Part shown: positions 4,891 through 30,024 of the stretch, piece after piece
Position numbering within the stretch: the first letter of the stretch is position 1
Layout of the letters: each line of letters begins with the position of its first letter
NCBI RefSeq assembly: GCF_008189285.1
Contig: NZ_CP043315.1
Location: 540,001-572,000 of the forward strand
Length of the DNA stretch: 32,000 bases
Source of the DNA: Candidatus Saccharimonadota bacterium
GTDB taxonomy: Bacteria > Pseudomonadota > Alphaproteobacteria > CAJXXZ01 > 1604HC
Direction of reading: 5' to 3'
Made by a program: the position numbers and the translations under genes
The notes under the pieces: model-generated
What the model was told of the DNA's origin: nothing
The model's input: only the letters and a program-made list of their open reading frames with translations
Database searches by the model: none

Positions 4891-5594
4891 ACGACAATCA
4901 ACTAACTGTATTGCCAAAAGAAATGAGAAAGCCGAAAAATTTAGAGAAACTATTTTTAAAAGATAATCAATTAAGGTCATTTCCAACTTGGATTGGAGAT
5001 TTAAGAAGTTTGGCATTACTTAATATATCGTATAATCATTTAGATGCGCTACCATTTGGGATTGGGGATTTAAGAAACTTAGAAGCACTTGATGTGTCAT
5101 ATAATAAATTAACCATATTGCCAAAGGAAATGGCATATCTATATAATTTAAAATATCTTGACATGCAAAACAATTACATAACCTTTTTGCCAAATTGCAT
5201 TAAGGAATTGAAAAATTTGACAGGACTTTATATATCTAATAATCAATTGACTTCACTGCCAGATTGGATTGGAAATCTGGAAAGATTAGAAGAGCTTGAT
5301 GTATCTAATAATAAATTAACTGCGCTACCAGAAGGAATTTGCAATTTATCATTAAAAGAATTTAATTATTCAAACAATGCTATTAATTTAGAATTTTCTT
5401 CTATGAATATGAAAACATGGATGCAATATGAAGGAAAATACACTATTTCTTACATTGTATCCGCACAAGATCGAGAGCGAGCAATAGAAAAACAAAAACA
5501 AAAACAAATGAAAGTATTGGAAGAAGAGCAAAAACGACAAATAGAAGAAAGAATCCATGCAGAAAGAATCCATGCAGATGCAGAAAAAAAATAA
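4887..5594 (+). CDS. Leucine-rich-repeat protein, downstream fragment (continues the broken repeat; 6.5 LRR + cap + K/Q/E-rich tail)
   Basis: ORF track. The non-ATG 'start' (TTG) lies inside an LRR (L)NDNQLTVLPKEM. The frame is offset by one base from the upstream fragment. The tail reads ..RERAIEKQKQKQMKVLEEEQKRQIEERIHAERIHADAEKK. Confidence 0.8.
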   Translation: MNDNQLTVLPKEMRKPKNLEKLFLKDNQLRSFPTWIGDLRSLALLNISYNHLDALPFGIGDLRNLEALDVSYNKLTILPKEMAYLYNLKYLDMQNNYITFLPNCIKELKNLTGLYISNNQLTSLPDWIGNLERLEELDVSNNKLTALPEGICNLSLKEFNYSNNAINLEFSSMNMKTWMQYEGKYTISYIVSAQDRERAIEKQKQKQMKVLEEEQKRQIEERIHAERIHADAEKK

Positions 5595-5716
5595 AAGCTT
5601 ATTCAAGAAGGTATTTAATATTTCTGCTAGTCAATCAGATATAAATAAAAGCGCTAAAAGATACTTTGAACAAAATAAAGATCTTTTTTAATCAATAAAT
5701 TTATATTTAATGTATT

Positions 5717-5738
5717 TTTTGTTCCACATGGAACAAAA
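5717..5738. repeat. Palindrome family copy: TTTTGTTCCA-CA-TGGAACAAAA (10-bp arms)
   Basis: Read directly from the sequence. Intergenic, downstream of the LRR gene. Confidence 0.9.
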
Positions 5739-5979
5739 GCTTAATATTATATCTTATTTAGAGAAAATCTACTCTCTAGCTCTTTTGCAATTTTGCAGCT
5801 TTAGTCATTTTACATTTTCTGTAAACTGTATATAAAAGTTGAAAGGTCATCAAAAATAGGAATTCTACTAACGTTTATTTTCAATTTTTTCAAGGTATTG
5901 CTATTATATAAGTTTTGTTTAATTCATTGCATTGAATAGCTTTATGCATTAAGGTTGATTGGTTGTTTGGATTTTATTT

Positions 5980-6462
5980 ATGAAGATTTTAGGATTAGAT
6001 GTTGGATTGTGTAAAACTGGATGGGGATTGATCAAAAAAGGGAAAAAACTTCAATGTGTGGATTATGGACTTATAAAGCCAAATCCTAAGCTCCCATTAG
6101 AACAAAGATTGGCTCTTTTATGGTCAAATACAATGAATATTATCCATACTCACAATCCAGAAAACATAGCTATAGAGCAAACTTTCTTTGGCCTAAATGC
6201 ATCTTCTGGAATTAGATTAGGAGCTGCATATGGAGCTATTATATCTGCTGCTGGTTTAGCAAAAGTCCCTGTTACATCATATCCTACGACAGTAATTAAG
6301 CAAAAAGTAGCTGGAAAAGGCAATGCAACTAAAGAAGATGTCATGAGTTTTGTTTGTAAAATTTTAAAAACTGAAATAGACCAAGAAGATATTTCTGACG
6401 CGCTTGCAACTGCTATATGTCATTTACAAAAAATAGAAAATAATTCGCAAGAAATTGCATAG
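5980..6462 (+). CDS. ruvC: Holliday junction resolvase RuvC
   Basis: ORF track 5959..6462. I prefer the ATG at 5980 (MKILGLDVGLCKTGWGLI), which matches the canonical RuvC N-terminus. IEQTFFG, the KxKVAGxGxAxKEDV-like segment and DALATAICH are present. Confidence 0.9.
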   Translation: MKILGLDVGLCKTGWGLIKKGKKLQCVDYGLIKPNPKLPLEQRLALLWSNTMNIIHTHNPENIAIEQTFFGLNASSGIRLGAAYGAIISAAGLAKVPVTSYPTTVIKQKVAGKGNATKEDVMSFVCKILKTEIDQEDISDALATAICHLQKIENNSQEIA

Positions 6463-6481
6463 AATTTGTTAGAGATGCAAG

Positions 6482-6583
6482 GATTTAAAATATAGATATC
6501 TAATGGAAGCATTATAGATGTAGAAATTTAAAGATTTAAAATATAGATATCTAATGGAAGCATTATAGATGTAGAAATTTAAA
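6482..6583. repeat. Perfect 51-bp direct duplication (2 copies, head to tail)
   Basis: gatttaaaatatagatatctaatggaagcattatagatgtagaaatttaaa occurs at 6482-6532 and again at 6533-6583. It lies in the convergent ruvC / PAAR-like spacer. Confidence 0.9.
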
Positions 6584-6595
6584 ATTCAAATAATA

Positions 6596-6979
6596 TCACA
6601 ACTTCACTTTAACTTGCCCTGCAAAGGATATGCTAATTACTCCACCCCAAATGCAAAATGCTTTAGATTGATCATTCAATGCTGGAATCTCTCCAATTAA
6701 TACATCTGGCTTTCCAGTCACCCATGGAGCAACAACTGCAGGCACACATGGAGCCTGAGTAACAGTTCCTAAACTTGCTATGATAACAGCTTGTACAGCT
6801 GGATTTGCAGGAGATGTGCACATGACAAACGGATGAATATTTGCGATTGGAATATTATCTGCAATTGTTGCTGCTGGCTGCCCACAGGCATTAACTCTTT
6901 TTGCTGGCAAGATCATTAAATCAGATTGAACTGTTCCAAATGTACAATTCGCACAAGCTCCATTACATACTAGATTCAT
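6596..6979 (-). CDS. DUF4280 / PAAR-like domain protein (candidate T6SS or contractile-injection spike tip)
   Basis: ORF track, 127 aa. The pattern C-x2-C-xFG..GQPAAT..N-I-x-PF-x-MC-x-S-x-ANP..APCVP..PW..G-x-PAL..S-x-x-x-C-x-x-GG-x-I-S-I..GQ matches my recollection of the DUF4280 (PAAR-like) family. No extension domain is present. Confidence 0.8.
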   Translation of the reverse strand: MNLVCNGACANCTFGTVQSDLMILPAKRVNACGQPAATIADNIPIANIHPFVMCTSPANPAVQAVIIASLGTVTQAPCVPAVVAPWVTGKPDVLIGEIPALNDQSKAFCIWGGVISISFAGQVKVKL

Positions 6980-7286
6980 TGTATATTTTTTGAATCATAA
7001 TGATTAATTTTTGATTAAACTTTTATCTTCAATTACTTTGCTATTTTGCTCTATTCGCTCCATTATCTTAATATTTTTAAGATCTTAACTCAATTTATCT
7101 TTTTTATTATTCGCTACATTTATTAAATTTAGAGCCGTTATCTTGAATAGCAATTCATTTCATCCAGTTTAGATTCGCTTTTTTATATATCAACTCCACT
7201 TGCCCTTCTCGCTTTGCTCAACTTAACTTCTATTTCTCGTTTCTCTCAAAATCTTGCTCTTCTCGCTTTGGTCTGCTTATTAAATC

Positions 7287-7913
7287 TCAATTCAATGAAG
7301 TTTCAAATATAGAGCTTACAAATATTACAGATGGAGCTCTTTTGTGAATAATGCATTGTGTGTGAATTCTACTTACTGCATTGTATATTTCATCATAAGA
7401 TCTTTTCACTCGTTTAATAATAAATTGCAAAACATCATTATGTGCATCAAGTCCAAAATCTCTAAACAATTTATGCATTATCGCAATGCAAATTTCATTA
7501 TCTGGATTAGGTATTTGCATGTGAGTAATTACATTGAATCTTGACCTAATATCTGGAATTAGATTATCAATAAAATTCAAATCCTCAATAAGCCATAAAA
7601 TATTACCATTAGATTGAGATGAATTAAACAAAATATTAAAAATTTTCTCTTCCGAAAATCTATTCACATTATCTATAATTATATTTTTTGAGTAATCTAT
7701 ATTGCTGCATTCAGGATCCAAGAAAAAACCTCCAGAAATTTCTTTCCAAATATTCGCTAAATGGGTTTTTCCAGATTTTTTAGGGCCCACTAAAATAGTT
7801 TGGCCATTCCATAAATTATCATTTTCAATCCAATTTATTATAAATCTATTTGTTTTATTGGTAAAAAAATTAGCTTTAGAAGAGCTCTCGCTCCAATTAA
7901 AATTTAAGATCAT
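7287..7913 (-). CDS. hda: DnaA regulatory inactivator Hda-like AAA+ protein
   Basis: ORF track. 208 aa with Walker A LVGPKKSGKTHL, a short DnaA-domain-III-like protein, and the IRSRF sensor region. Confidence 0.75.
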   Translation of the reverse strand: MILNFNWSESSSKANFFTNKTNRFIINWIENDNLWNGQTILVGPKKSGKTHLANIWKEISGGFFLDPECSNIDYSKNIIIDNVNRFSEEKIFNILFNSSQSNGNILWLIEDLNFIDNLIPDIRSRFNVITHMQIPNPDNEICIAIMHKLFRDFGLDAHNDVLQFIIKRVKRSYDEIYNAVSRIHTQCIIHKRAPSVIFVSSIFETSLN

Positions 7914-7923
7914 TTTTTCTTAT

Positions 7924-8892
7924 TCAAGACCATTTCCTTTTAATTATTCCGGTCCTCCATACTGCTGCAAAAATCACAGATAGCGGCAATGTTAATATAA
8001 TACCGCTAATTCCAAGTAATTTTCCAAAAATTAACAACAGTATAAATAAAAATAAAGGATGTATTCCCGCTTTTCTTCCTATAAATAATTGAACCATAAA
8101 AACATTTTCCAATACAAATCCAAGGCTTAAAATAGCAAATGAATATATCATAAATTCTGAGAAAAATGGTTGATAACCAGATAAAATACTAAACATAATG
8201 ATAAATGAAATCATGTCTCCAATATATGGAATTATTGATAAAATACTAAATAAACAAGACAGTAAAAAGGCAAATGGCATATTGATATAACTTAATGCCA
8301 TAAAGTAATATGCAAATAAAGTTAATGTAACTAACATTTGTCCATAAATCCATATTTTCAATGAATGCATAATGTCTTCGAAAAGTATATTTGCCGTACT
8401 TTTATATTGCTCTGGAACAATGCTAAGAAATCTTGGCCTCCATAGCTCCCAATCTTTCAACATATAAAAACACATCATAATGACAGAAATAAATTGTAAG
8501 ACTAAATTTACCAAATCATAACCATATCCAGATGCAACAACAACAGCTTTTTGCAAACTATCTTTACTAAGAAGCATATTGCTTAAGGGTTGTTGGCCAT
8601 AATCATCCAAAATATGCGCATATTTATCAATGACTAATCTATATACTAATTGAAGAAATTTAAATAATTCAATTGCCTGCATGTAAAGTTTTGGTACTGA
8701 ATAAATTAATAACAATACCAATAAAATAGCAGCAATAAACACAGATAATAAAGCAGATAAAAATCTAGAAAATCCTATTTTCACTAATTTTTCATAAATT
8801 GGAGACAGAACATATGCAAGAAGAAAAGAAGAGAAAACAAGGGTTATAATATCTAAAAAATAAAATGCAATTCCAGTTGCAATAATGTTCAT
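7924..8892 (-). CDS. AI-2E/PerM (UPF0118) family membrane transporter
   Basis: ORF track. 322 aa with about 7-8 hydrophobic helices. The IIPYIGDMISF motif is typical of the family. A 4-nt ATGA overlap joins it to upstream pgsA. Confidence 0.7.
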   Translation of the reverse strand: MNIIATGIAFYFLDIITLVFSSFLLAYVLSPIYEKLVKIGFSRFLSALLSVFIAAILLVLLLIYSVPKLYMQAIELFKFLQLVYRLVIDKYAHILDDYGQQPLSNMLLSKDSLQKAVVVASGYGYDLVNLVLQFISVIMMCFYMLKDWELWRPRFLSIVPEQYKSTANILFEDIMHSLKIWIYGQMLVTLTLFAYYFMALSYINMPFAFLLSCLFSILSIIPYIGDMISFIIMFSILSGYQPFFSEFMIYSFAILSLGFVLENVFMVQLFIGRKAGIHPLFLFILLLIFGKLLGISGIILTLPLSVIFAAVWRTGIIKRKWS

Positions 8893-10907: not shown

Positions 10908-11235
10908 GCTATGAATCGAAAAACGCTTCTCTCTTTCGTTCTTGCTTCGCTATGAATCGAAAATCGCTTCTCTCTTTCGTTCTTGCTTCGCTATGAATCG
11001 AAAATCGCTTCTCTCTTTCGTTCTTGCTTCGCTATGAATCGAAAATCGCTTCTCTCTTTCGTTCTTGCTTCGCTATGAATCGAAAATCGCTTCTCTCTTT
11101 CGTTCTTGCTTCGCTATGAATCGAAAATCGCTTCTCTCTTTCGTTCTTGCTTCGCTATGAATCGAAAATCGCTTCTCTCTTTCGTTCTTGCTTCGCTATG
11201 AATCGAAATTCGTTTCTCTCTTTCGTTCTTGCTTA
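10908..11235 (+). repeat. Tandem array, 8 x 41 bp (gctatgaatcgaaaatcgcttctctctttcgttcttgcttc)
   Basis: The unit ATGs sit at 10911, 10952, 10993, 11034, 11075, 11116, 11157 and 11198, an exact 41-bp period. Six units are identical, the first has 1 substitution and the last has 3. Confidence 0.97.
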
Positions 11236-11274
11236 TCTCATAATTATCATCAACCATTTAATTGCAAAATCACC

Positions 11275-11280
11275 TATAAT
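11275..11280 (+). promoter_or_regulatory. Perfect TATAAT hexamer 6 nt upstream of the dnaQ ATG (possible leaderless-mRNA promoter)
   Basis: The sequence reads cacctataatacgattATG. No Shine-Dalgarno lies between, and no good -35 was seen. Confidence 0.25.
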
Positions 11281-11286
11281 ACGATT

Positions 11287-11928
11287 ATGAATATTATAGT
11301 TCTAGATACGGAAACCACTGGATTAAGCAGATCAACAGATAGGATCGTAGAAATAGGATGCATAGAATTAAATAATTTTGAATATACTGGAAGAAAATTA
11401 CACTTGTATATCAATCCGGAACAAGAAATGGGAGAAGAAGTACAAAAAATTCATGGAATAACTAATCAATTCCTTAAAGATAAGCCTGTCTTTAAAGATG
11501 TATATGAACAATTTCTAGACTTTGTAAAAGACTCAACTATAGTTGCTCATAATGCAAAATTTGATATGGGATTCCTAAACGCTGAGCTTTCAAGGCAAAA
11601 GCAAGAAAATTTAAGTAATAAAGTTGTAGATACTTTAGCTGTAGCGAGAAAAATGTTTCCAGGATCTCCTGCAAACTTAAATGCATTAGCTAAAAGATTC
11701 AATATTTCACTTCATGAAAGAACATTGCATGGAGCGCTGATTGATGCAAAAATATTGTCGAAAGTATATGTATCTCTTTATGCGCCAAAGCAACAGTCTC
11801 TTTTTGTTGAAGAAAAGAAAATAAAAACTGTATCTGGGAAAATTGAAAGATCTGAGAGCAAATTAACTGTTTCTGAAGAAGAAATGGATGCGCATAATAG
11901 TATTATGGATCAATTGAGGCAGAAATGA
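11287..11928 (+). CDS. dnaQ: DNA polymerase III epsilon subunit (3'-5' proofreading exonuclease)
   Basis: ORF track 11188..11928. I place the start at ATG 11287 (MNIIVLDTETTGL), because the upstream 33 codons lie inside the tandem repeat. The Exo motifs DTETTG, HNAKFDMGFL and HGALIDAKIL are present. Confidence 0.9.
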   Translation: MNIIVLDTETTGLSRSTDRIVEIGCIELNNFEYTGRKLHLYINPEQEMGEEVQKIHGITNQFLKDKPVFKDVYEQFLDFVKDSTIVAHNAKFDMGFLNAELSRQKQENLSNKVVDTLAVARKMFPGSPANLNALAKRFNISLHERTLHGALIDAKILSKVYVSLYAPKQQSLFVEEKKIKTVSGKIERSESKLTVSEEEMDAHNSIMDQLRQK

Positions 11929-15077: not shown

Positions 15078-15914
15078 ATGCATCATATGAAAGTAAAAAT
15101 TGAGCCATACAATTCAAACTGGATTAAACAATTTGAAATCGAAGAATGTAAAATTAAATCATCATTAGGGAAAAATTTAATATCTATTCATCACATTGGA
15201 TCTACAGCAATTCCAGAATTATCTGCAAAACCTATAATAGATATAATTGTAGAAATTGATAACTTAGAATTTGAGCACAAAGACTTAGAATGCTTGAATT
15301 ATGAATACAGAGGTGGATTCAATTTACCTTTGAGAAAATGCTTTACTTACAGATCGTCAAAATTAAATATTAATCTTCATATTTTTGAGAAAAATAATCC
15401 AGAAATAGAGCTAAACTTATTATTTTGCGATCATTTAAAAAATAATGATAACAATAAAGAAGAATATGAAAAGTTAAAATACAAACTTATTAAAAATGCA
15501 AAATCACATCAGAAAGATAATTCAATGTTTAAAAATTATACTTTAGGAAAACATGATTTTATAAAAGAAATATTGAAAAAGACAAAATTTAATCGTTTGA
15601 GATTTGTAATATGCGCGCATTTTGAAGAATTAAATGCAGCAAAGAAATATCGTAATGAGTATATTAGAAACGATAAATATGAACTCACTTTTCATGACGA
15701 AGATCACAAGCATTTTATTTTGTATGAAGGAATTAAAATTATTGGATATTCTCATATTCAACTGAAATTTGAAAAAAGAGCTATAATGCACATAATTGTA
15801 ATAGATAAGAATAATTGCACCCAATCAAATTATGATAAAAATTACATCAAAGAATTTCTATTTTTAATTGATAAATGGCTAAAACTGCAAAATTATATAA
15901 GATATGACAAATAG
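15078..15914 (+). CDS. GrpB (UPF0157) nucleotidyltransferase-fold domain fused to a degenerate GNAT-like C-terminal domain
   Basis: ORF track. The N-terminal half (VKIEPYNSNWIKQFE..IHHIGSTAIPELSAKPIIDIIVEI) matches GrpB. The C-terminal ~100 aa (HFILYEGIKIIGYSHIQL..AIMHIIVIDKN) resembles small GNATs but lacks the R/Q-x-x-G-x-G/A motif. Confidence 0.65.
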   Translation: MHHMKVKIEPYNSNWIKQFEIEECKIKSSLGKNLISIHHIGSTAIPELSAKPIIDIIVEIDNLEFEHKDLECLNYEYRGGFNLPLRKCFTYRSSKLNINLHIFEKNNPEIELNLLFCDHLKNNDNNKEEYEKLKYKLIKNAKSHQKDNSMFKNYTLGKHDFIKEILKKTKFNRLRFVICAHFEELNAAKKYRNEYIRNDKYELTFHDEDHKHFILYEGIKIIGYSHIQLKFEKRAIMHIIVIDKNNCTQSNYDKNYIKEFLFLIDKWLKLQNYIRYDK

Positions 15915-16816: not shown

Positions 16817-16936
16817 ATCATTATTTTCGCCACTTTCAAGCAATATGTCAATAATAATTTAAAATTTATAAACAATTTTTGCATTTTAGAGAAAATTATA
16901 TTGTAAAACAAACAATAAAAGAGTAAAATCCATTCT

Positions 16937-17024
16937 GGAGAGGTGGCCGAGAGGCTTATGGCGGCGGTTTGCTAAACCGTTATACGTTTTCAGCGTATCG
17001 AGGGTTCGAATCCCTTCCTTTCCG
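16937..17024 (+). tRNA. tRNA-Ser (anticodon GCU), long variable arm
   Basis: Hand-folded. Acceptor GGAGAGG/CCTTTCC, anticodon stem-loop GCGGT-TTGCTAA-ACCGT, a long extra arm, and T-arm GAGGG-TTCGAAT-CCCTT. Confidence 0.9.
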
Positions 17025-17362
17025 TGTTTAATAAAATTACAAAAAGAGGGACAGAAAAAGATTTTTGAATAAATAAATATTGAAGTTTAAGACTCCTAAA
17101 AAGGGCAGAGCCAATTAGATTCTCATAGAGATTTAGCTAAGCATTAAAATTTAAAGTGCTAAGTAAGAGAATTAAGCAAAATTAGCTTATAAACAGGTAA
17201 AATTATATTAAGATGAATTCTTTATCTTGTAGATTTTGCAAATATTTAATAGAGAGATAAAATTTAATGGGATAAATAACTGTATTCAGTATTTTCCTTT
17301 TTGTTAAAATATTATAAATATTTAAGTTTTTCGAAATTTAAATAAAGAAAGGGAAATAAAAA

Positions 17363-18556
17363 ATGAATGAAAATGACACAGTAAATAACTCAAACTCTGG
17401 AAACGACGGAGGAAACAGAGAAAGAAGTTCAGGCGGAGATTTTAGAGGAAATCGTGAAGGCGGCGGAAGTCGCGGAGGTTTCGGCGGCGGACGTGACGGT
17501 GGAAGTCGCGGAGGTTTCGGCGGCGGACGTGACGGTGGAAGCCGTGGCGGATTCGGTGGCGGACGTGATGGCGGAAGCCGTGGCGGATTCGGTGGCGGAC
17601 GTGATGGTGGAAGCCGTGGCGGATTCGGTGGCGGAAGTCGCGGAGGTTTCGGTGGCGGACGTGACGGTGGAAGCCGTGGCGGATTCGGCGGAGAAAGATC
17701 TGGCGGATTCGGTGGCGGACGTGACGGTGGAAGCCGTGGCGGATTCGGTGGCGGACGTGATGGCGGAAGCCGTGGCGGATTCGGCGGAGAAAGATCTGGC
17801 GGATTCGGTGGCGGACGTGACGGCGGAAGTCGCGGAGGTTTCGGCGGCGGACGTGACGGTGGAAGTCGCGGAGGTTTCGGTGGCGGACGTGACGGTGGAA
17901 GTCGTGGAGGTTTCGGTGGCGGAAGTCGCGGAGGCTTCGGTGGCGGACGTGATGGCGGAAGTCGTGGCGGATTCGGTGGAGAAAGATCTGGTGGATTCGG
18001 TGGCGGACGTGACGGCGGAAGTCGTGGCGGATTCGGTGGAGAAAGATCTGGTGGATTCGGTGGTGGACGTGACGGCGGAAGTCGTGGCGGATTCGGTGGC
18101 GGACGTGACGGTGGAAGTCGCGGAGGTTTCGGTGGCGGAAGTCGCGGAGGCTTCGGTGGAAGCCGTGACGGTGGAAGCCGTGGCGGATTCGGTGGCGGAC
18201 GTGATGGCGGAAGTCGTGGCGGATTCGGTGGAAATCGTGATGGTGGAAACAGATTCGAAAATGAAAATTCAAACAGAGGAAACTTCAGAGATAATAACAA
18301 TGAAGAAAGATTCAATAACGAAGATGCAAACGAAAATCAATTCGAGAGCAATATAGTGATTGAAGATGAATCCGAAGAAGGAATTTCAAATGAAAATCAA
18401 TCTGAGAATGAAACATCCAATGAATCTGAAGAAAATTCTAACGATGAATCTAAAGAAGATGAATCCGAAGAAGACTCTAACGATGAATCTGAAGAAGATG
18501 AGTCAGAAGAAGATTCTAACGATGAGTCAGAAGAAGACGCAACAAACAAGGACTAA
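17363..18556 (+). CDS. RGG/GAR-repeat protein with an acidic D/E/S/N-rich C-terminal tail (no other domain)
   Basis: ORF track. ATG is preceded by AAGGGA at an 8-nt spacing. About 25 modules of [12 protein letters not shown] / GSRGGFGG / ERSGGFGG are present. Differences between repeats are synonymous in this frame. The ORF extends about 100 codons beyond the repeats into the tail ..[29 protein letters not shown]. Confidence 0.8.
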
Positions 18557-18682
18557 TAATCCAAATTTCAAAGAAATGATGCAATCTGCATCGATTTTGC
18601 GATTATTTATCGCAAATAAAATTACAATAATACAATAAATATAGCCAGGATCGAGCTACTCAAGTTAAAACAAAGAATATAA

Positions 18683-18700
18683 ATGCTCCAAGCGGAGCAT
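18683..18700 (+). terminator. Weak hairpin ATGCTCC-AAGC-GGAGCAT downstream of the RGG gene
   Basis: A 7-bp stem read directly from the sequence. No U-run follows. Confidence 0.2.
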
Positions 18701-18796
18701 GCTAAAATACTAATAAATTTACTTCATATAAAATATTTTTGAATATACAAATTAACAAGCATATCTAAACAATTATTATTTTATAAAAAATATTGA

Positions 18797-18812
18797 TGCT
18801 CCACGTGGAACA
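18797..18812. repeat. Palindrome family copy TGcTCCACGTGGAACA (one mismatch)
   Basis: Read directly from the sequence; intergenic. Confidence 0.85.
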
Positions 18813-18935
18813 ATTTATAAGATCTTGCATTGTCTGCATTTTAAATTTTAAACATATCATTAGAAAAATTAATCTTATTGATAATAATGCGATTTATCTT
18901 AATGATAATTTTTTAATGAATTAAAGGAGATTTAT

Positions 18936-19721
18936 ATAGCAAGACTAAAAAATAAAATAGCATTAATCACAGGCGGGGACATGGAGTTAAAATAGAAACT
19001 ATCTTGCTTGCTTAATTCTAAAGGAGCAACTGTTATTATAGTTGATTTGTTGGAAAATGAAGACCAAACAGTGGCAGATAGCATTAATGGGGATCTTGTA
19101 CTATGTATGTTGCAAATAAATCAGAATGGGTGGATTATAAATGCAATAAAGAATAAATTTGGTTGATTGGATATTTTATTTAATAATGCTAAAATTACAG
19201 GTTTTGATGAGAATTTAGGTCAGGAAAATATTAGATTGGAAACTTGGCATCATGTGCATAAAATAAATTTAGATGACGTATTTTTGAGATGCAAATATGG
19301 AGCTTCTCTTATGAAACAGAACGGTGGATCAATTGTTAATATCATCTAGATTTTGGAGTTGTTGAAATTCCTAGGGCTAGCCGCATATACATAAAGCAAA
19401 GCAGCTGTAAGAAATCACACAAAAACTGTTGCCCTATATTGCGCAGAACAAGGTTATAAAATTCGTTGCAATTCACTTCATCCTGGAGCAATATTAACTC
19501 CAATGTGGGATTCTATGTTTGGAAATGACAAAAAATCTCGCGAAAAAATGATTAATTCAATTGCTTCTGGCGTGCCACTTGGAACTATGGGAGAGCCTAG
19601 CGATGTTGCAAATGCTGTACTTTATCTTGGTTCTGATGAATCAAAATATATAACTGGAATAGAATTAAATATTGACGGAGGAATTCTTGCAGGAAGTCAA
19701 TCTGCGCCAAAAAAGAATTAG
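18936..19721 (+). pseudogene. Short-chain dehydrogenase/reductase (FabG-like) pseudogene
   Basis: A single reading frame translates as (I)ARLKNKIALITGG..GATVIIVD..FG*LDILFNNAKI..GGSIVNII*..AAYT*SKAAV..IRCNSLHPGAILTPM..GEPSDVANAVLYLGSDESKYITG. In-frame stops occur at 18993, 19164, 19347 and 19392. The start codon position reads ATA, 5 nt after an intact AAGGAGA. The glycine-rich cofactor motif is degraded, and one stop falls inside YxxxK. Confidence 0.85.
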
Positions 19722-19736
19722 AATGAATAATAAATT

Positions 19737-19750
19737 GTTCCACATGGAAC
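19737..19750. repeat. Palindrome family copy GTTCCACATGGAAC
   Basis: Read directly from the sequence, 16 nt after the pseudogene stop. Confidence 0.85.
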
Positions 19751-19952
19751 GCTATAATTTGTGACTATGAATTCTTAATAAACTTTTCATTTGAAATTCT
19801 TTGTATAAAATATGCATCAAAGAAATTAACATCATATCTTTCTCCATCTAATCCGCTACAGCTTCCACCTTCACACCACTTAAACCTCCACGAATTCTAT
19901 AATCGAATACGCTAATGAAGTTTAATGCTTTAAATTTAGCATTTTAAACTTT

Positions 19953-19968
19953 TGTTCCACATGGAACA
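19953..19968. repeat. Palindrome family copy TGTTCCACATGGAACA
   Basis: Read directly from the sequence; intergenic. Confidence 0.9.
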
Positions 19969-20073
19969 CTTCTCCTTTAAATATCTTCACTAAATTTATA
20001 TCAATTTTTAGCATCATTTTTACAGCATATCGTTTTATCTTATTGGATCTACTTAACAAACTTTTAGATTAAA

Positions 20074-20139
20074 TTTAATTCCATTTTTCATTTCTTTCAT
20101 TTTCGCTTAAGTTTAATTCCGTTTTTCATTTCTTTCATT
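20074..20139. repeat. Direct repeat, 2 x 28 nt at 38-bp spacing (tttaattccRtttttcatttctttcatt)
   Basis: Copies lie at 20074-20101 and 20112-20139 with one mismatch. Confidence 0.7.
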
Positions 20140-20184
20140 CTCAGTTAATATTTAGATTTAATTTTCCATTCAGAAGAATGTTTT

Positions 20185-20823
20185 CTATTCAGAAGAATTG
20201 CTAAACAAGCTTAATCCTGCACATACAGCTGTTTCTGCTCTTAATATATTATGGTGCAAAGAAATCTTTTTATATTTATTTAAAGCATTTAGTTCATTAT
20301 CTGACCATCCGCCTTCAGGCCCAATAAGCATTCCATCTCCATTCCAGAAATCTTTTTTATTATTTTGAGAAGAATCTGCTACAACCCATTCTATATCTGG
20401 CAAATCAATTAATTTAATATTTTCATGTATTTTAGGAACTCCAATTCTTCCACATTGCTCAGCTGCCTCTATTGCAATTTTATTTAATCGCCTTGAATCA
20501 ATATATTTGCGATTTACTCTATCAGTAATTAATAAATATATTTCATCAACATCAAGCTCAACAGCTTTCTCTATTGCTACTTCTAGTTTATTTTTCCTTA
20601 TATAGCCAATGCCTAGCTTTGGTCTTTTTCGCATAACAGTAGATAGATTTTCTATTATTTCAATATTTGGAAATAATATTTTTGCTTTAAATGCATTTTT
20701 ATTATCGAAAATTTCAATAATATCTTCATCATTACATCTCATCACATTTTTAAGATAATGTAATTGCTTGTCATCAAGAGTCAATGTACTTGAATAAATG
20801 CTTTCTATATATATTCTTATCAT
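20185..20823 (-). CDS. rsmE: 16S rRNA (uracil1498-N3)-methyltransferase RsmE
   Basis: ORF track. 212 aa with HYLKNVMRCNDEDIIEIFD at the N-terminus and LIGPEGGWSDNE..L..NILRAETA at the C-terminus (SPOUT knot). Confidence 0.85.
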   Translation of the reverse strand: MIRIYIESIYSSTLTLDDKQLHYLKNVMRCNDEDIIEIFDNKNAFKAKILFPNIEIIENLSTVMRKRPKLGIGYIRKNKLEVAIEKAVELDVDEIYLLITDRVNRKYIDSRRLNKIAIEAAEQCGRIGVPKIHENIKLIDLPDIEWVVADSSQNNKKDFWNGDGMLIGPEGGWSDNELNALNKYKKISLHHNILRAETAVCAGLSLFSNSSE

Positions 20824-21359
20824 ACTCTGATTGTTCGCATATGATGTGTAGTTGTGTCAATAATCAATGACTCATTTCCCGTAACATTTTGATCATCTTC
20901 AATTCCCATAGCATCAATTGTAATTTCACTAAATTTAGAAGCATTGTCATGAGATGAAATATTTGCACTTGTCATGCATAGTGGCATTTTTACTTCATTT
21001 AAAATTTCTTGAAAAACTCTATTCTCTGGCACTCTAATTCCTATTTTTCCAGTGAATTTTGATCTGGAGTGAAATCCATGAGGAATGTCGCTTTTGATGA
21101 TCAATGTAAAAGGGCCAGGAAATAATCTATCGCACAAATTATGAAGATTTTTTGGAATATTAAATTGATCAAGCATGTTTTTTGTTATATGCAAACTAAT
21201 TGGCTTTTCTATATTTCGATTCTTTATATCAAATAATTTATCAATAGCAGTTTGAGAATCATACCTTGCTCCAATTCCGTATACTGTTTCAGTAGGCAAA
21301 ATTACAATTTCATCATTCAGTATTTTTTGTATTATTTTATTTTTTATTGAATAAATCAT
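20820..21359 (-). CDS. tsaC: YrdC/TsaC-family threonylcarbamoyl-AMP synthase
   Basis: ORF track. The LPTETVYGIGA motif is present, at 179 aa. A 4-nt overlap joins it to rsmE. Confidence 0.85.
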   Translation of the reverse strand: MIYSIKNKIIQKILNDEIVILPTETVYGIGARYDSQTAIDKLFDIKNRNIEKPISLHITKNMLDQFNIPKNLHNLCDRLFPGPFTLIIKSDIPHGFHSRSKFTGKIGIRVPENRVFQEILNEVKMPLCMTSANISSHDNASKFSEITIDAMGIEDDQNVTGNESLIIDTTTHHMRTIRV

Positions 21360-22680
21360 GCGCCATTTTTCTCAAATTATCAGAAGATTCATTAGACTTA
21401 GAGCCTCCAAAAGATTTATTTGACTCAGAGCTGCTAGAAGACTCATTCAATTTATAGTTTTCAGAAATCTCATTCGATTTGGAATTTACAGCAGATTCAC
21501 TTGATTCAGGCTTAACTCTAGAAATATTAATAGAATTATTGCTATTTTCTCCCACTCTTATCTTCTCTTTCATATCTTTGCTATCTTCCTCTGAATGATT
21601 GTGAATATCTTCTGAATTACTATAACTATTCTCTACATTATTATTTTGAGTAATTTGATTAGCCATGCTATTATTTCCAGATTCATACATCATTGATGCT
21701 TTAAGCAAATGTACATCGAATATCTCTTCTGGATATGGGCTCTGATGCAACTCTACAGAGCTTTGAGCCAACATATACCCTAAAGCAATATCTTGCTGAG
21801 AAGCATAATTCTCTCTTATTTGAATTAATAGCTGTCTTATTACATTTAATGAATCTGATCCTTCAGAAATGACTTTTTGCGCAATGGATTTCAACTTATT
21901 ATAAGATTTTTCTCTTATGCATTTTAAAATTTGAGATAAGTTATCTTCAGATGCCAATCCAAGCATTTTTTGCATACTGCTCTCAGTTATTTTCTGTTCA
22001 CATAAAAGAGAAGCTTGTTCCAAAATAGAAATAGCCTGCCTCATTGATCCATAAGATGCAAGAAAAATCATATCTATAGCATTTTTTTCAATGTCTATTC
22101 CATATTGCTTTGATAAATTCTGTATATGCAATTTCATACTTTCTTGCTTAATGCTTTCAAGTGAGATTCTAAAACATCTCGATATAATAGTTTTTGGAAT
22201 TTTATCGATATCTGTTGTGGCCAACACAAATTGGGTGTAACTATTTGGCTCTTCAAGTGTTTTTAGCAACGCGCTAATTGCACTTCTAGAAAGCATGTGA
22301 ACTTCATCTATAATATATATTCTCTTTTTTGCATTAACAGGCCTGTAGACAGATCCCTCAAGAAGATTTCTGATTGAATCAACGCTTGTATTACTTGCTC
22401 CATCCAACTCAAATACATCTGGATGAATATTATCAATACAATCTAAGCAATTTTTGCATACACCGCAAGGCTCATCATTTACATGATCTTTGCAACAAAA
22501 CCATTGCGCTATCAATCTAGCTAAAGTAGTTTTTCCAACCCCAGCTGGACCATGCAATAAACAAACATTCCCCAATAAATCTCGCTTCAATCCATTGTGA
22601 AGTAATTTTACAGCTAACTCTTGACCAATAACATCTCTAAATTTTCTTGGCCTAGCTTGTTTTGGTAAATTACATTTCAT
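21337..22680 (-). CDS. dnaX: DNA polymerase III subunit gamma/tau, with an N/S/E-rich low-complexity C-terminus
   Basis: ORF track. RPRKFRDVIGQE, Walker A HGPAGVGKTT, the zinc module CGVCKNCLDC, IIDEVHMLS, LLKTLEEP and SRC are all present. Confidence 0.92.
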   Translation of the reverse strand: MKCNLPKQARPRKFRDVIGQELAVKLLHNGLKRDLLGNVCLLHGPAGVGKTTLARLIAQWFCCKDHVNDEPCGVCKNCLDCIDNIHPDVFELDGASNTSVDSIRNLLEGSVYRPVNAKKRIYIIDEVHMLSRSAISALLKTLEEPNSYTQFVLATTDIDKIPKTIISRCFRISLESIKQESMKLHIQNLSKQYGIDIEKNAIDMIFLASYGSMRQAISILEQASLLCEQKITESSMQKMLGLASEDNLSQILKCIREKSYNKLKSIAQKVISEGSDSLNVIRQLLIQIRENYASQQDIALGYMLAQSSVELHQSPYPEEIFDVHLLKASMMYESGNNSMANQITQNNNVENSYSNSEDIHNHSEEDSKDMKEKIRVGENSNNSINISRVKPESSESAVNSKSNEISENYKLNESSSSSESNKSFGGSKSNESSDNLRKMAHDLFNKK

Positions 22681-29107: not shown

Positions 29108-29130
29108 TTTTTGTTCCATATGGAACATTT
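29108..29130. repeat. Palindrome family copy with flanks: TTTTTGTTCCATATGGAACATTT (left boundary of the 34-bp array module)
   Basis: Read directly from the sequence. It is the exact reverse complement of 30043-30065. Confidence 0.9.
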
Positions 29131-29188
29131 ATATTTATTGCATTTAACGCTCTACCGCAACTCACCAACGCCCTTTATTATTGCAATA

Positions 29189-30024
29189 ACGAATGATCAA
29201 AGCAAAGCTGAGAATGAGAGAAACGAATGATCAAAGCAAAGCTGAGAATGAGAGAAACGAATGATCAAAGCAAAGCTGAGAATGAGAGAAACGAATGATC
29301 AAAGCAAAGCTGAGAATGAGAATGAATGATCAAAGAAACGAATGATCAAAGCAAAGCTGAGAATGAGAGAAACGAATGATGATCAATGATCAAAGCTGAG
29401 AATGAGAGAAACGAATGATCAAAGCAAAGCTGAGAATGAGAGAAACGAATGATCAAAGCAAAGCTGAGAATGAGAGAAACGAATGATCAAAGCAAAGCTG
29501 AGAATGAGAGAAACGAATGATCAAAGCAAAGCTGAGAATGAGAGAAACGAATGATCAAAGCAAAGCTGAGAATGAGAGAAACGAATGATCAAAGCAAAGC
29601 TGAGAATGAGAGAAACGAATGATCAAAGCAAAGCTGAGAATGAGAGAAACGAATGATCAAAGCAAAGCTGAGAATGAGAGAAACGAATGATCAAAGCAAA
29701 GCTGAGAATGAGAGAAACGAATGATCAAAGCAAAGCTGAGAATGAGAGAAACGAATGATCAAAGCAAAGCTGAGAATGAGAGAAACGAATGATCAAAGCA
29801 AAGCTGAGAATGAGAGAAACGAATGATCAAAGCAAAGCTGAGAATGAGAGAAACGAATGATCAAAAAGCAAAGCTGAGAATGAGAGAAACGAATGATCAA
29901 AGCAAAGCTGAGAATGAGAGAAACGAATGATCAAAGCAAAGCTGAGAATGAGAGAAACGAATGATCAAAGCAAAGCTGAGAATGAGAGAAACGAATGATC
30001 AAAGCAAAGCTGAGAATGAGAGAA
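29189..30024 (+). repeat. Tandem array, about 25 x 34 bp (acgaatgatcaaagcaaagctgagaatgagagaa)
   Basis: The exact 34-bp period was verified at several points (e.g. 29189 to 29223). Most units are identical. Indel variants occur at about 29311-29400 and about 29866. No unique spacers are present. TGA stops close every reading frame on both strands within about 102 bp. Confidence 0.97.

Follow-up and report, generated by a model that had tools for sequence, protein, structure and literature searches.

The window studied here is a 32,000-nucleotide stretch of DNA from Candidatus Cytomitobacter indipagum, an unculturable Holosporales-type endosymbiont with a 628-kb genome whose host is the marine diplonemid protist Diplonema aggregatum. 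The RsmE, RnpA and GrpB proteins encoded in it show 100% identity to NCBI entries for this organism, on a contig of 628,024 bp. In this window we identify a gene whose product, referred to here as the RGG protein, joins an array of RGG and FGG motifs to an acidic tail. The gene is real, is read in the + frame and is under purifying selection, and its product is a disordered diblock polyampholyte with a +20 array and a −37 tail. That this is a real, selected and disordered protein we regard as very probable. Its role is put forward more tentatively, as a plausible reading that still falls somewhat short of probable: a free-standing, trans-acting bacterial RGG protein that binds RNA or acts as a chaperone, with a self-limiting acidic tail.

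To our knowledge, RGG low-complexity tracts in bacteria are known only as appendages of RNA enzymes, and a free-standing RGG array with an acidic tail is not seen elsewhere in the databases searched. A 628-kb genome has shed most non-essential genes, and this one keeps a lone ~255-aa RGG array, joined to a −37 block, under purifying selection. If the protein is active in the bacterium, it would provide a minimal natural system for the action of RGG arrays in prokaryotes, be it RNA chaperoning, condensate formation or another activity, and also a model for the tuning of RGG activity by an acidic tail. If it is exported, it would represent a new class of host mimic, and interest would rise sharply.

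Architecture of the RGG protein

The gene and the parts of its product are as follows.

17349..17354, + strand: Shine-Dalgarno-like AAGGGA, 8 nt ahead of the ATG, from direct reading of the sequence
17363..18556, + strand: complete open reading frame (ORF) of 397 aa, 38.6 kDa, pI 4.7; the ATG is the sole possible in-frame start, and the frame opens at 17360
17363..17467, + strand: N/G-rich head, 35 aa, no hydrophobic segment
17468..18232, + strand: RGG/FGG array of 255 aa, built from 24 in-frame modules that measure 36 or 24 bp
18233..18553, + strand: acidic Ser/Asn-rich tail, 107 aa, net −37

Direct parsing of the ORF places the array at residues 36-290 and resolves it into 16 twelve-residue units (15 identical and one variant), three GSRGGFGG modules, four ERSGGFGG modules and a leading partial SRGGFGG. 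The array is 57% Gly and holds 20 RGG and 24 FGG motifs, with Phe recurring every 8 or 12 residues. Its 40 Arg residues stand against 20 Asp/Glu, one Asp lying in every twelve-residue unit, which leaves a net charge of +20, or +0.08 per residue, and a pI of ~12. The tail is composed largely of Glu (31), Asn (23), Ser (15) and Asp (13), carries 44 acidic against 7 basic residues (pI 4.05), and contains 11 S/T-x-x-D/E sites and a 39-bp internal repeat in three copies, encoding NDES[K/E]EDESEEDS. Over the whole protein, 40% of residues are Gly and 2% are aliphatic, and the highest Kyte-Doolittle value over any 15-aa window is −0.4. AlphaFold2 returned a pLDDT of 37 and no secondary structure, and the protein is predicted to be fully disordered.

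A preliminary description of the locus, made by reading the sequence, had presented it as a domain-free RGG/FGG array with an acidic Ser-rich tail and had suggested a diblock polyampholyte. Both points are borne out by the ORF parsing and charge counts, and no family in Pfam, NCBIfam, PHROGs or PADLOC matches the protein. The dimensions given there need adjustment. The repeat block is 255 aa rather than ~290 aa, residue 290 being where it ends, and the estimates of ~25 modules and a ~100-aa tail were close to the 24 and 107 counted. Repeats do exist within the tail, as the 39-bp unit, but the 13-aa string that had been named as one occurs once, at residue 369. We also considered the tail as a run of RGG units decayed by G-to-A change, and rejected this (DNA similarity score 5, against 6.4 for the null); the first partial unit of the tail alone is repeat-derived.

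Coding frame and selection

Because the GC-rich array leaves four of the six frames open, the length of the ORF proves nothing by itself. This openness is also what could be said for a locus that is not a gene in this frame, being either a selfish GC-rich minisatellite or the seat of an antisense Pro-rich ORF (17338-18315, − strand). The variation between units argues against both. Among the 15 units with identical protein sequence, all eight variable DNA columns (8/8) fall at third codon positions (P = 1.6e-5), and pairwise codon differences between units in the sense frame are 442 synonymous to 15 non-synonymous. The corresponding figures for the antisense ORF are 397 and 70, and in the remaining frames the differences are almost all non-synonymous. 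The preliminary description had made an argument of this kind from two alternative codon strings for SRGGFGG, both of which are present. The argument holds (70 against 15 non-synonymous differences), but it is weaker than it seemed, as the antisense frame shares wobble positions with the sense frame and its variation is therefore mostly synonymous too.

The frame is settled independently by the absence of stops from the tail and by a decayed copy of the gene described below, and the earlier claim that the + frame is the one under selection stands. When the 321-nt AT-rich tail is shuffled with its composition preserved, 0.025% of the shuffles are free of stops. For the flanks of the antisense ORF the proportion is 28-33%, which is not significant; the sense frame alone thus extends significantly into AT-rich DNA. 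In addition, all module lengths in the array are multiples of 3, R, D, S and F are kept perfectly in every unit, the tail repeats differ from one another by 5 synonymous changes and 1 non-synonymous change, and the first and second codon positions of the intact array have resisted AT mutation pressure throughout. The exact 397-aa product is missing from a 15-billion-protein collection in which the neighbouring GrpB is present (QEK38219.1), which would favour the view that this is no gene. However, two ATG-start control ORFs are likewise missing, so that this absence is weak and uninformative.

A decayed copy as neutral comparator

Downstream of the RGG gene lie the remains of two others.

19008-19721, + strand: short-chain dehydrogenase (SDR) pseudogene, of which at least two pieces match adh_short, each in another frame; a third piece is unconfirmed
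19784..19912, − strand: inverted partial copy of the RGG gene, decayed and shortened internally, situated between rsmE and the SDR pseudogene

The copy comprises ~2.3 RGG modules (19833-19912) followed by a collinear 16-nt exact match to the tail (19784-19799). Over an 84-nt alignment to nt 257-340 of the ORF (E = 2.8e-9), 62 positions match, 18 mismatch and 4 nt fall in a gap. Every one of the 18 mismatches is a GC-to-AT change; they are distributed 5:6:7 over the codon positions, and the 4-nt deletion breaks the frame. The decayed copy shows the effect of the genome's mutation pressure on unselected RGG DNA, and its decay of ~22% indicates that the RGG sequence has long been resident in the genome. 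It thereby provides a rare built-in neutral control, in which AT-biased decay can be set against selection within one locus. Together with the SDR pseudogene, it makes the stretch from the RGG gene to rsmE a gene-decay zone. Two copies of a palindrome, GTTCCACRTGGAAC, bracket the decayed copy at 19737-19750 and 19954-19967.

Sequence relatives and related genomes

Relatives of the RGG protein were sought by a word-indexed search of 5.8 billion proteins (18 matches) and an exhaustive HMMER search of 1.84 billion representatives (61 matches). Neither returned the protein itself or any protein of the same architecture. The top HMMER match is the tail of a 1198-aa RNase R (P0139) from GCA_002632265.1, with 221 bits and E 2.5e-60. 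The C-terminus of this RNase R consists of ~30 tandem copies of a near-identical 12-aa unit, and its 36-bp repeat likewise varies mainly at third codon positions. The two repeats differ in their codons, the RNase R tail using TCA for Ser and CGA/CGT for Arg where the array here uses AGY and CGY; common descent of the two is therefore not shown. The source genome of that RNase R has 37% GC and carries ankyrin-repeat genes beside the RNase R gene, which itself lies at 5001-8597 of the extracted locus (L085, NQOV01000006.1) and encodes an N/Q/E-rich head.

The other RGG-tract matches are DEAD-box helicases (P0002, P0011), one of them from a Spiroplasma endosymbiont; methyltransferases of the RlmI/L type (P0001, P0145), RlmB and RsmG; RluB-type pseudouridine synthases; IF2; small RRM proteins; zinc-ribbon proteins; and a few eukaryotic nucleolin-like or helicase proteins. 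In one bacterial match (P0013), an acidic block occurs together with an RGG tail, and the leftover matches are unrelated Gly-rich low-complexity repeat proteins. Among PDB sequences the sole match, a weak one, is the glycine- and arginine-rich (GAR) region of yeast Nop1/fibrillarin (residues 6-83, E 1.9e-7), so the resemblance to GAR domains noted in the preliminary description is real at the level of the motif. The label eukaryote-like that was attached to it is not diagnostic, because the best match is the bacterial RNase R tail and most RGG matches sit on bacterial RNA enzymes; no eukaryotic protein among the 1.84 billion representatives scores near that tail. The motif is GAR-like, but its closest company is bacterial and attached to RNA enzymes.

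Searched as a degenerate DNA pattern, the exact 12-aa peptide occurs at five sites in JGI metagenomes, each a single copy (two in RRM proteins, one in a zinc-ribbon protein and two in spurious frames), and it was not found in a viral contig collection. A pattern scan of metagenome proteins matched 600 stretches, of which tblastn confirmed none at E <= 1e-3.

Relatives of the source genome were compared through 20-kb, rsmE-anchored loci from C. primus, two ~620-kb ENA genomes and Nesciobacter, with the addition of a Logan contig. The order DnaX-TsaC-RsmE is conserved in four relatives (L081-L084, compared with 18557-22680 of the window), and the gene that follows rsmE differs in every relative genome compared. 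No relative has an RGG tail on RsmE, the protein whose gene faces the decayed copy with its 3′ end. In two of the four, the rsmE locus has a VgrG cluster nearby. This comparison covers the rsmE side of the locus, so absence of the RGG gene from the relatives is not proven. A search for RnpA homologs returned the source protein and two weak matches only, and a DnaX search of a genome collection gave a best match of 44% identity and no genome of the source genus or a close relative.

Base composition, codon usage and origin

GC content reaches 66.4% in the repeat core, compared with 30.3% over the window and ~30% in the genome. Counts given in the preliminary description for two lines of 60 bases, 42 G+C in the line starting at 17461 and 9 in that starting at 17281, are exact. 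Most of this excess stems from codon positions 1 and 2 (GC1 0.79, GC2 0.83), that is, from Gly and Arg content, and GC3 is 0.37 against 0.21 for the genome. The codon-usage and GC3 comparison proposed there does uncover atypical usage, although the GC excess as such is mostly a matter of amino-acid composition.

Arg codons in the repeats are 28 CGT, 8 CGC and 4 AGA, the AGA codons all lying in ERS modules; the head has 3 AGA and 1 CGT, and the tail 4 AGA and 1 CGT. That single CGT in the tail is the one exception to what had been stated earlier about Arg codons, namely CGT/CGC in the repeats, a mixture in the head and AGA in the tail and neighbouring genes. CGY thus accounts for 90% of repeat Arg codons compared with 7% in the genome, while AGA makes up 74% of Arg codons in thirty neighbouring genes and 90% in ribosomal genes. 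Phe is encoded by TTC 28/28 times, against 21%. The C-ending share of two-fold codons, C/(C+T), is 0.46 in the head, 0.70 in the array and 0.44 in the tail, compared with 0.10-0.38 in 30 other genes, and the excess in head plus tail (0.44) is significant against those genes (P = 2.6e-5). Atypical codon usage therefore spans the whole ORF.

Two readings of this bias can be given. It fits a gene acquired longer ago from a source richer in GC and still in the course of amelioration, a reading to which the C/T and C/A polymorphisms between units point. Alternatively, it would fit very high expression; NDK, RRF, S2 and S5 stand near the top of the C-ending-codon ranking in the window. The preliminary description had proposed a compositional island next to tRNA-Ser, and the atypical codon usage agrees with this, but the signs of an island border do not appear. 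Between 17026 and 20184 there are only the RGG ORF, the SDR pseudogene fragments and the decayed RGG copy, with neither an integrase nor any other gene for mobility; the last 22 nt of the tRNA-Ser occur once in the window, allowing up to 3 mismatches; and the AT-rich direct repeats flanking the RGG locus are at chance level and mark no island borders.

The array (17468-18232) is 49% G yet contains no GGG run, its wobble variants being A, C or T and never G; Gly is encoded by GGG in 0/146 codons, against 12% in the genome. This absence may reflect avoidance of slippage-prone G runs or of G-quadruplexes.

A proposed trans-acting RNA-binding role

In the mechanism that we propose, the array would bind RNA multivalently and non-specifically through Arg-phosphate contacts and Arg/Phe-base contacts, with Phe residues serving as stickers. 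The protein would be a trans-acting version of the RGG tails that are elsewhere fused to helicases, RNase R, rRNA methyltransferases and pseudouridine synthases. Its acidic tail would compete intramolecularly by folding back electrostatically on the array, which would keep the protein soluble and would tune or limit both RNA binding and condensation. The default location would be the bacterial cytoplasm. We infer RNA binding, tail autoinhibition and cytoplasmic location from these features, and the proposal fits two further observations. The neighbours of the gene include RNA housekeeping genes (rnpA, rpmH, tRNA-Ser, rsmE, tsaC, and genes for RNase D and an RNase T-like protein), and there is a precedent in E. 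coli CsdA, whose Arg/Gly-rich disordered regions drive RNA-dependent ribosome-biogenesis condensates (bioRxiv 10.64898/2026.09.17.752289).

Several points weigh against this proposal. Database matches to the array are largely driven by composition and are no proof of common descent. Sister species should share a core RNA function, so the missing counterpart counts against it: protein searches that included C. primus, the two ~620-kb relatives and Nesciobacter returned none, and tblastn found no RGG sequence in the 20-kb rsmE loci of the relatives. The low charge density of +0.08 and the −37 tail may weaken RNA binding. The atypical codon usage over the whole ORF hints at a foreign origin. Lineage-specific genes in reduced symbionts, repeat proteins among them, are often host-interaction factors. 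Finally, cargo of a type VI secretion system (T6SS) needs no N-terminal signal, so that the sequence by itself is compatible with export.

Alternative explanations

The last of these points leads to the alternative that survives best, which we consider unlikely but still a serious competitor. The protein would be exported, for example by a modified T6SS, and would act as a GAR/acidic mimic of nucleolar proteins that engages nucleolar, RNA-granule or mitochondrial RNA machinery of the diplonemid host; in one variant, the gene may have been acquired from a eukaryote. A host-mimicking effector of this type had been the interpretation offered in the preliminary description. The fibrillarin/Nop1 GAR domain as the sole PDB-sequence match is in its favour, and the GSRGGFGG module together with acidic Ser clusters bearing the 11 S/T-x-x-D/E (CK2-type) sites fits the GAR resemblance. 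No counterpart turned up in the protein searches or in the rsmE loci of the relatives, and codons are atypical over the whole ORF (C/(C+T) of 0.44-0.70, against 0.10-0.38 in 30 genes). The symbiont is obligately intracellular, and the T6SS genes, leucine-rich-repeat (LRR) proteins and tRNA-Ser reported earlier are all confirmed in the window, which carries genes for TssA-like, TssM and DotU proteins, a DUF4280 PAAR-like gene and two LRR proteins. Acidic tandem-repeat effectors exist in other intracellular Alphaproteobacteria, namely the Ehrlichia tandem repeat proteins (TRPs). The symbiont also associates with mitochondria of the host (bioRxiv 10.1101/719211; for its sister species, PMC13462478), which would suit such a role.

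However, nothing in the sequence marks the protein as an effector or as exported. It has no signal peptide or transmembrane segment, and Pfam and PADLOC report no T6SS delivery marker (PAAR, MIX, FIX, Rhs) or toxin domain. Nor is it adjacent to secretion genes: the nearest T6SS gene (TssA-like) is 4.9 kb off, across rsmE, tsaC, dnaX and a glyoxalase gene, and the DUF4280 gene is 10.4 kb distant, the RGG ORF itself being flanked by tRNA-Ser, rpmH and rnpA on one side and by the SDR pseudogene and rsmE on the other. The secretion equipment reported for the genus comprises Sec, a reduced type II secretion system/type IV pilus, and a T6SS without Hcp and TssJ, with no type I secretion system (T1SS) reported (bioRxiv 10.1101/719211). 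The locus has no island hallmarks, and the failure of any eukaryotic protein to score near the bacterial RNase R tail speaks against mimicry as well.

The composition of the array points the same way. In peptide experiments, [DRGG]7 and [ERGG]7 showed no transportin-1 binding and no condensation, and acidic residues in an RGG context suppressed RNA-driven condensation, with a plateau near +0.3 charge density (bioRxiv 10.64898/2026.01.26.701751). The array of the RGG protein has one Asp per unit and a low charge density. A review of bacterial nucleomodulins mentions RGG 0 times (PMC7819608). A more specific version, in which a fibrillarin/nucleolin-like protein from a GC-richer and possibly eukaryotic source would be exported and would partition into nucleolar, RNA-granule or mitochondrial RNA-processing assemblies of the host, seems to us improbable; if true, it would be the first RGG-type mimic among bacterial effectors.

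Also improbable is a cytoplasmic polyampholyte role that does not involve RNA, such as that of a hydrophilin-like protectant, a chaperone, or an ion or crowding buffer; in the chaperone variant, the acidic tail would serve basic ribosomal or nucleoid proteins. The extreme hydrophilicity of the protein, with 40% Gly and 2% aliphatic residues, is as expected from such a role, and its codon bias runs in the same direction as that of the highly expressed NDK, RRF, S2 and S5, suggesting high abundance. Against this, the protein matches no known bacterial hydrophilin or KGG-repeat family, and the perfect conservation of R, D, S and F argues for a sequence-specific surface over bulk composition.

Still more doubtful is an orphaned tail, left over after an RNA helicase, RNase R or methyltransferase gene lost its catalytic part or had it split off; such a remnant would do little or nothing by itself. 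All close analogues in sequence are tails carried by enzymes of these kinds, and the region is decaying, as seen in the SDR pseudogene (19008-19721) and the decayed RGG copy. The preliminary description had itself allowed for homologs of this kind with the ORF as a truncated piece of one. This holds as far as the relatives go, which are tails on bacterial RNA enzymes, but the ORF is not a truncated fragment: it starts at an ATG of its own, preceded by an SD-like site, and its head is distinct. When cores of helicases, RNase R, methyltransferases and pseudouridine synthases were compared with the window by tblastn, nothing better than E = 0.67 was found. There was no match in the RGG ORF or the 337 nt upstream, the nearest weak one (E = 1.9) lying ~0.8 kb downstream at 19381-19440, so that no enzyme-core remnant is seen near the ORF. 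Moreover, the strong purifying selection on the ORF is unlike the decay of the inverted copy, and an acidic tail is not a feature of the enzyme tails.

That the locus is not a gene in this frame is very unlikely, given the synonymous variation between units, the significant extension of the sense frame into AT-rich flanks and the neutral decay pattern seen in the inverted copy.

Comparison with known systems

The RGG tails of bacterial RNA enzymes are the closest parallel, and their membership extends from RNase R to RlmI/L-type, RlmB, RsmG and RluB-type proteins and to DEAD-box helicases, including disordered region IDR2 of E. coli CsdA. The P0139 RNase R, likewise from an AT-rich bacterium, shares with the RGG protein a near-identical 12-aa unit encoded by tandem 36-bp repeats that vary mostly at third positions. 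These tails also have Ser, Phe and interspersed Asp that gives a low net charge, and presumably bind RNA non-specifically or condense. The RGG protein differs from them in lacking a catalytic domain and in its appended 107-aa acidic tail, and from the P0139 tail in its AGY/CGY codons.

Eukaryotic GAR proteins (fibrillarin/Nop1, nucleolin, GAR1) resemble the RGG protein in their SRGGFGG motifs, clustered RGG and Phe, predicted disorder, and the combination of an RGG region with acidic Ser-rich tracts. Eukaryotic TSR3-like rRNA factors also have an RGG-plus-acidic-tail architecture (PMC4275035). In contrast to the RGG protein, GAR proteins have a methyltransferase, RRM or Gar1 core; in nucleolin the block order is reversed. 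Condensing GAR peptides have a charge density of ~+0.3 (bioRxiv 10.64898/2026.01.26.701751), compared with +0.08 and one Asp per unit here, which is unlike canonical GAR domains. The context here is a bacterial genome, and the similarity is no more than composition gives.

The C-terminal domain of Caulobacter RNase E is a charge-patterned disordered scaffold of BR-bodies. Its condensates and those of CsdA resemble the RGG protein in placing disordered Arg-rich and acidic blocks in one chain, and Caulobacter RNase E shares the alphaproteobacterial setting. RNA-dependent multivalency would be common to all three. The protein here is a single diblock rather than an alternating chain and has no enzyme attached, and its Asp content and acidic tail may disfavour condensation. 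Ehrlichia TRP32, TRP47 and TRP120 are acidic tandem-repeat effectors of an obligate intracellular alphaproteobacterium, with Ser/Asp/Glu-rich repeats and no signal peptide. They differ in having no RGG array and in using a T1SS, which is not reported in Cytomitobacter, and no sequence similarity between them and the RGG protein was detected.

Genomic setting and other elements of the window

The genome was assembled with Unicycler from Illumina and Nanopore reads (bioRxiv 10.1101/719211), so long reads presumably spanned the 770-bp RGG array, whose exact number of copies could nevertheless be slightly off. Housekeeping genes in the window stand in a scrambled order. Around the RGG ORF, the following elements were found.

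16936..17025, + strand: tRNA-Ser(GCU), 337 nt upstream of the RGG ORF (ARAGORN, Rfam)
17235..17263, + strand: sigma-70-like promoter candidate, TTTGCA/TTGCAA, 16/17 nt, TAAAAT, ~100 nt 5′ of the ATG
18578..18592, + strand: hairpin GATGCA-ATC-TGCATC followed by T-rich DNA, 22 nt past the stop codon; possible terminator, weak
18798..18811, no strand: palindrome GTTCCACRTGGAAC, one copy 240 nt 3′ of the RGG ORF

The promoter candidate reaches 9/12 matches in a consensus scan, which is weak evidence in DNA that is AT-rich. The hairpin was scanned as a − strand feature and also forms on the + strand, the palindrome being symmetric.

Against an expectation of 0.12, the window contains 14 copies of the species-specific 14-nt palindrome GTTCCACRTGGAAC (5721, 10297, 13134, 13180, 13225, 13330, 15957, 16054, 18798, 19572, 19737, 19954, 29113 and 30047). 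Twelve of the 14 are intergenic, often at the 3′ ends of genes, and it was not found in the loci taken from relatives. It could be a terminator hairpin, an element resembling repetitive extragenic palindromes (REP-like) or the binding site of a regulator. Besides the decayed RGG copy, its copies (at 29113 and 30047) bracket a tandem array of 24 copies of a 34-bp unit at 29188-30024, which has a 102-bp higher order and is purine-rich on the + strand. No ORF of at least 100 aa is listed over this array, which sits between the T6SS gene dotU and rpsE, at a break in the ribosomal operon.

Two further observations concern genes upstream. A 41-bp unit is repeated 8 times at 10908-11234 with 98% identity, directly after tRNA-Gln, and this array extends into the TTG predicted as the start of the RNase T-like ORF (11188-11928); translation of that ORF probably begins further downstream. 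The GrpB-family ORF at 15078-15914 (+ strand) encodes 278 aa, with the GrpB domain at residues 5-168 and a C-terminal extension of ~110 aa.

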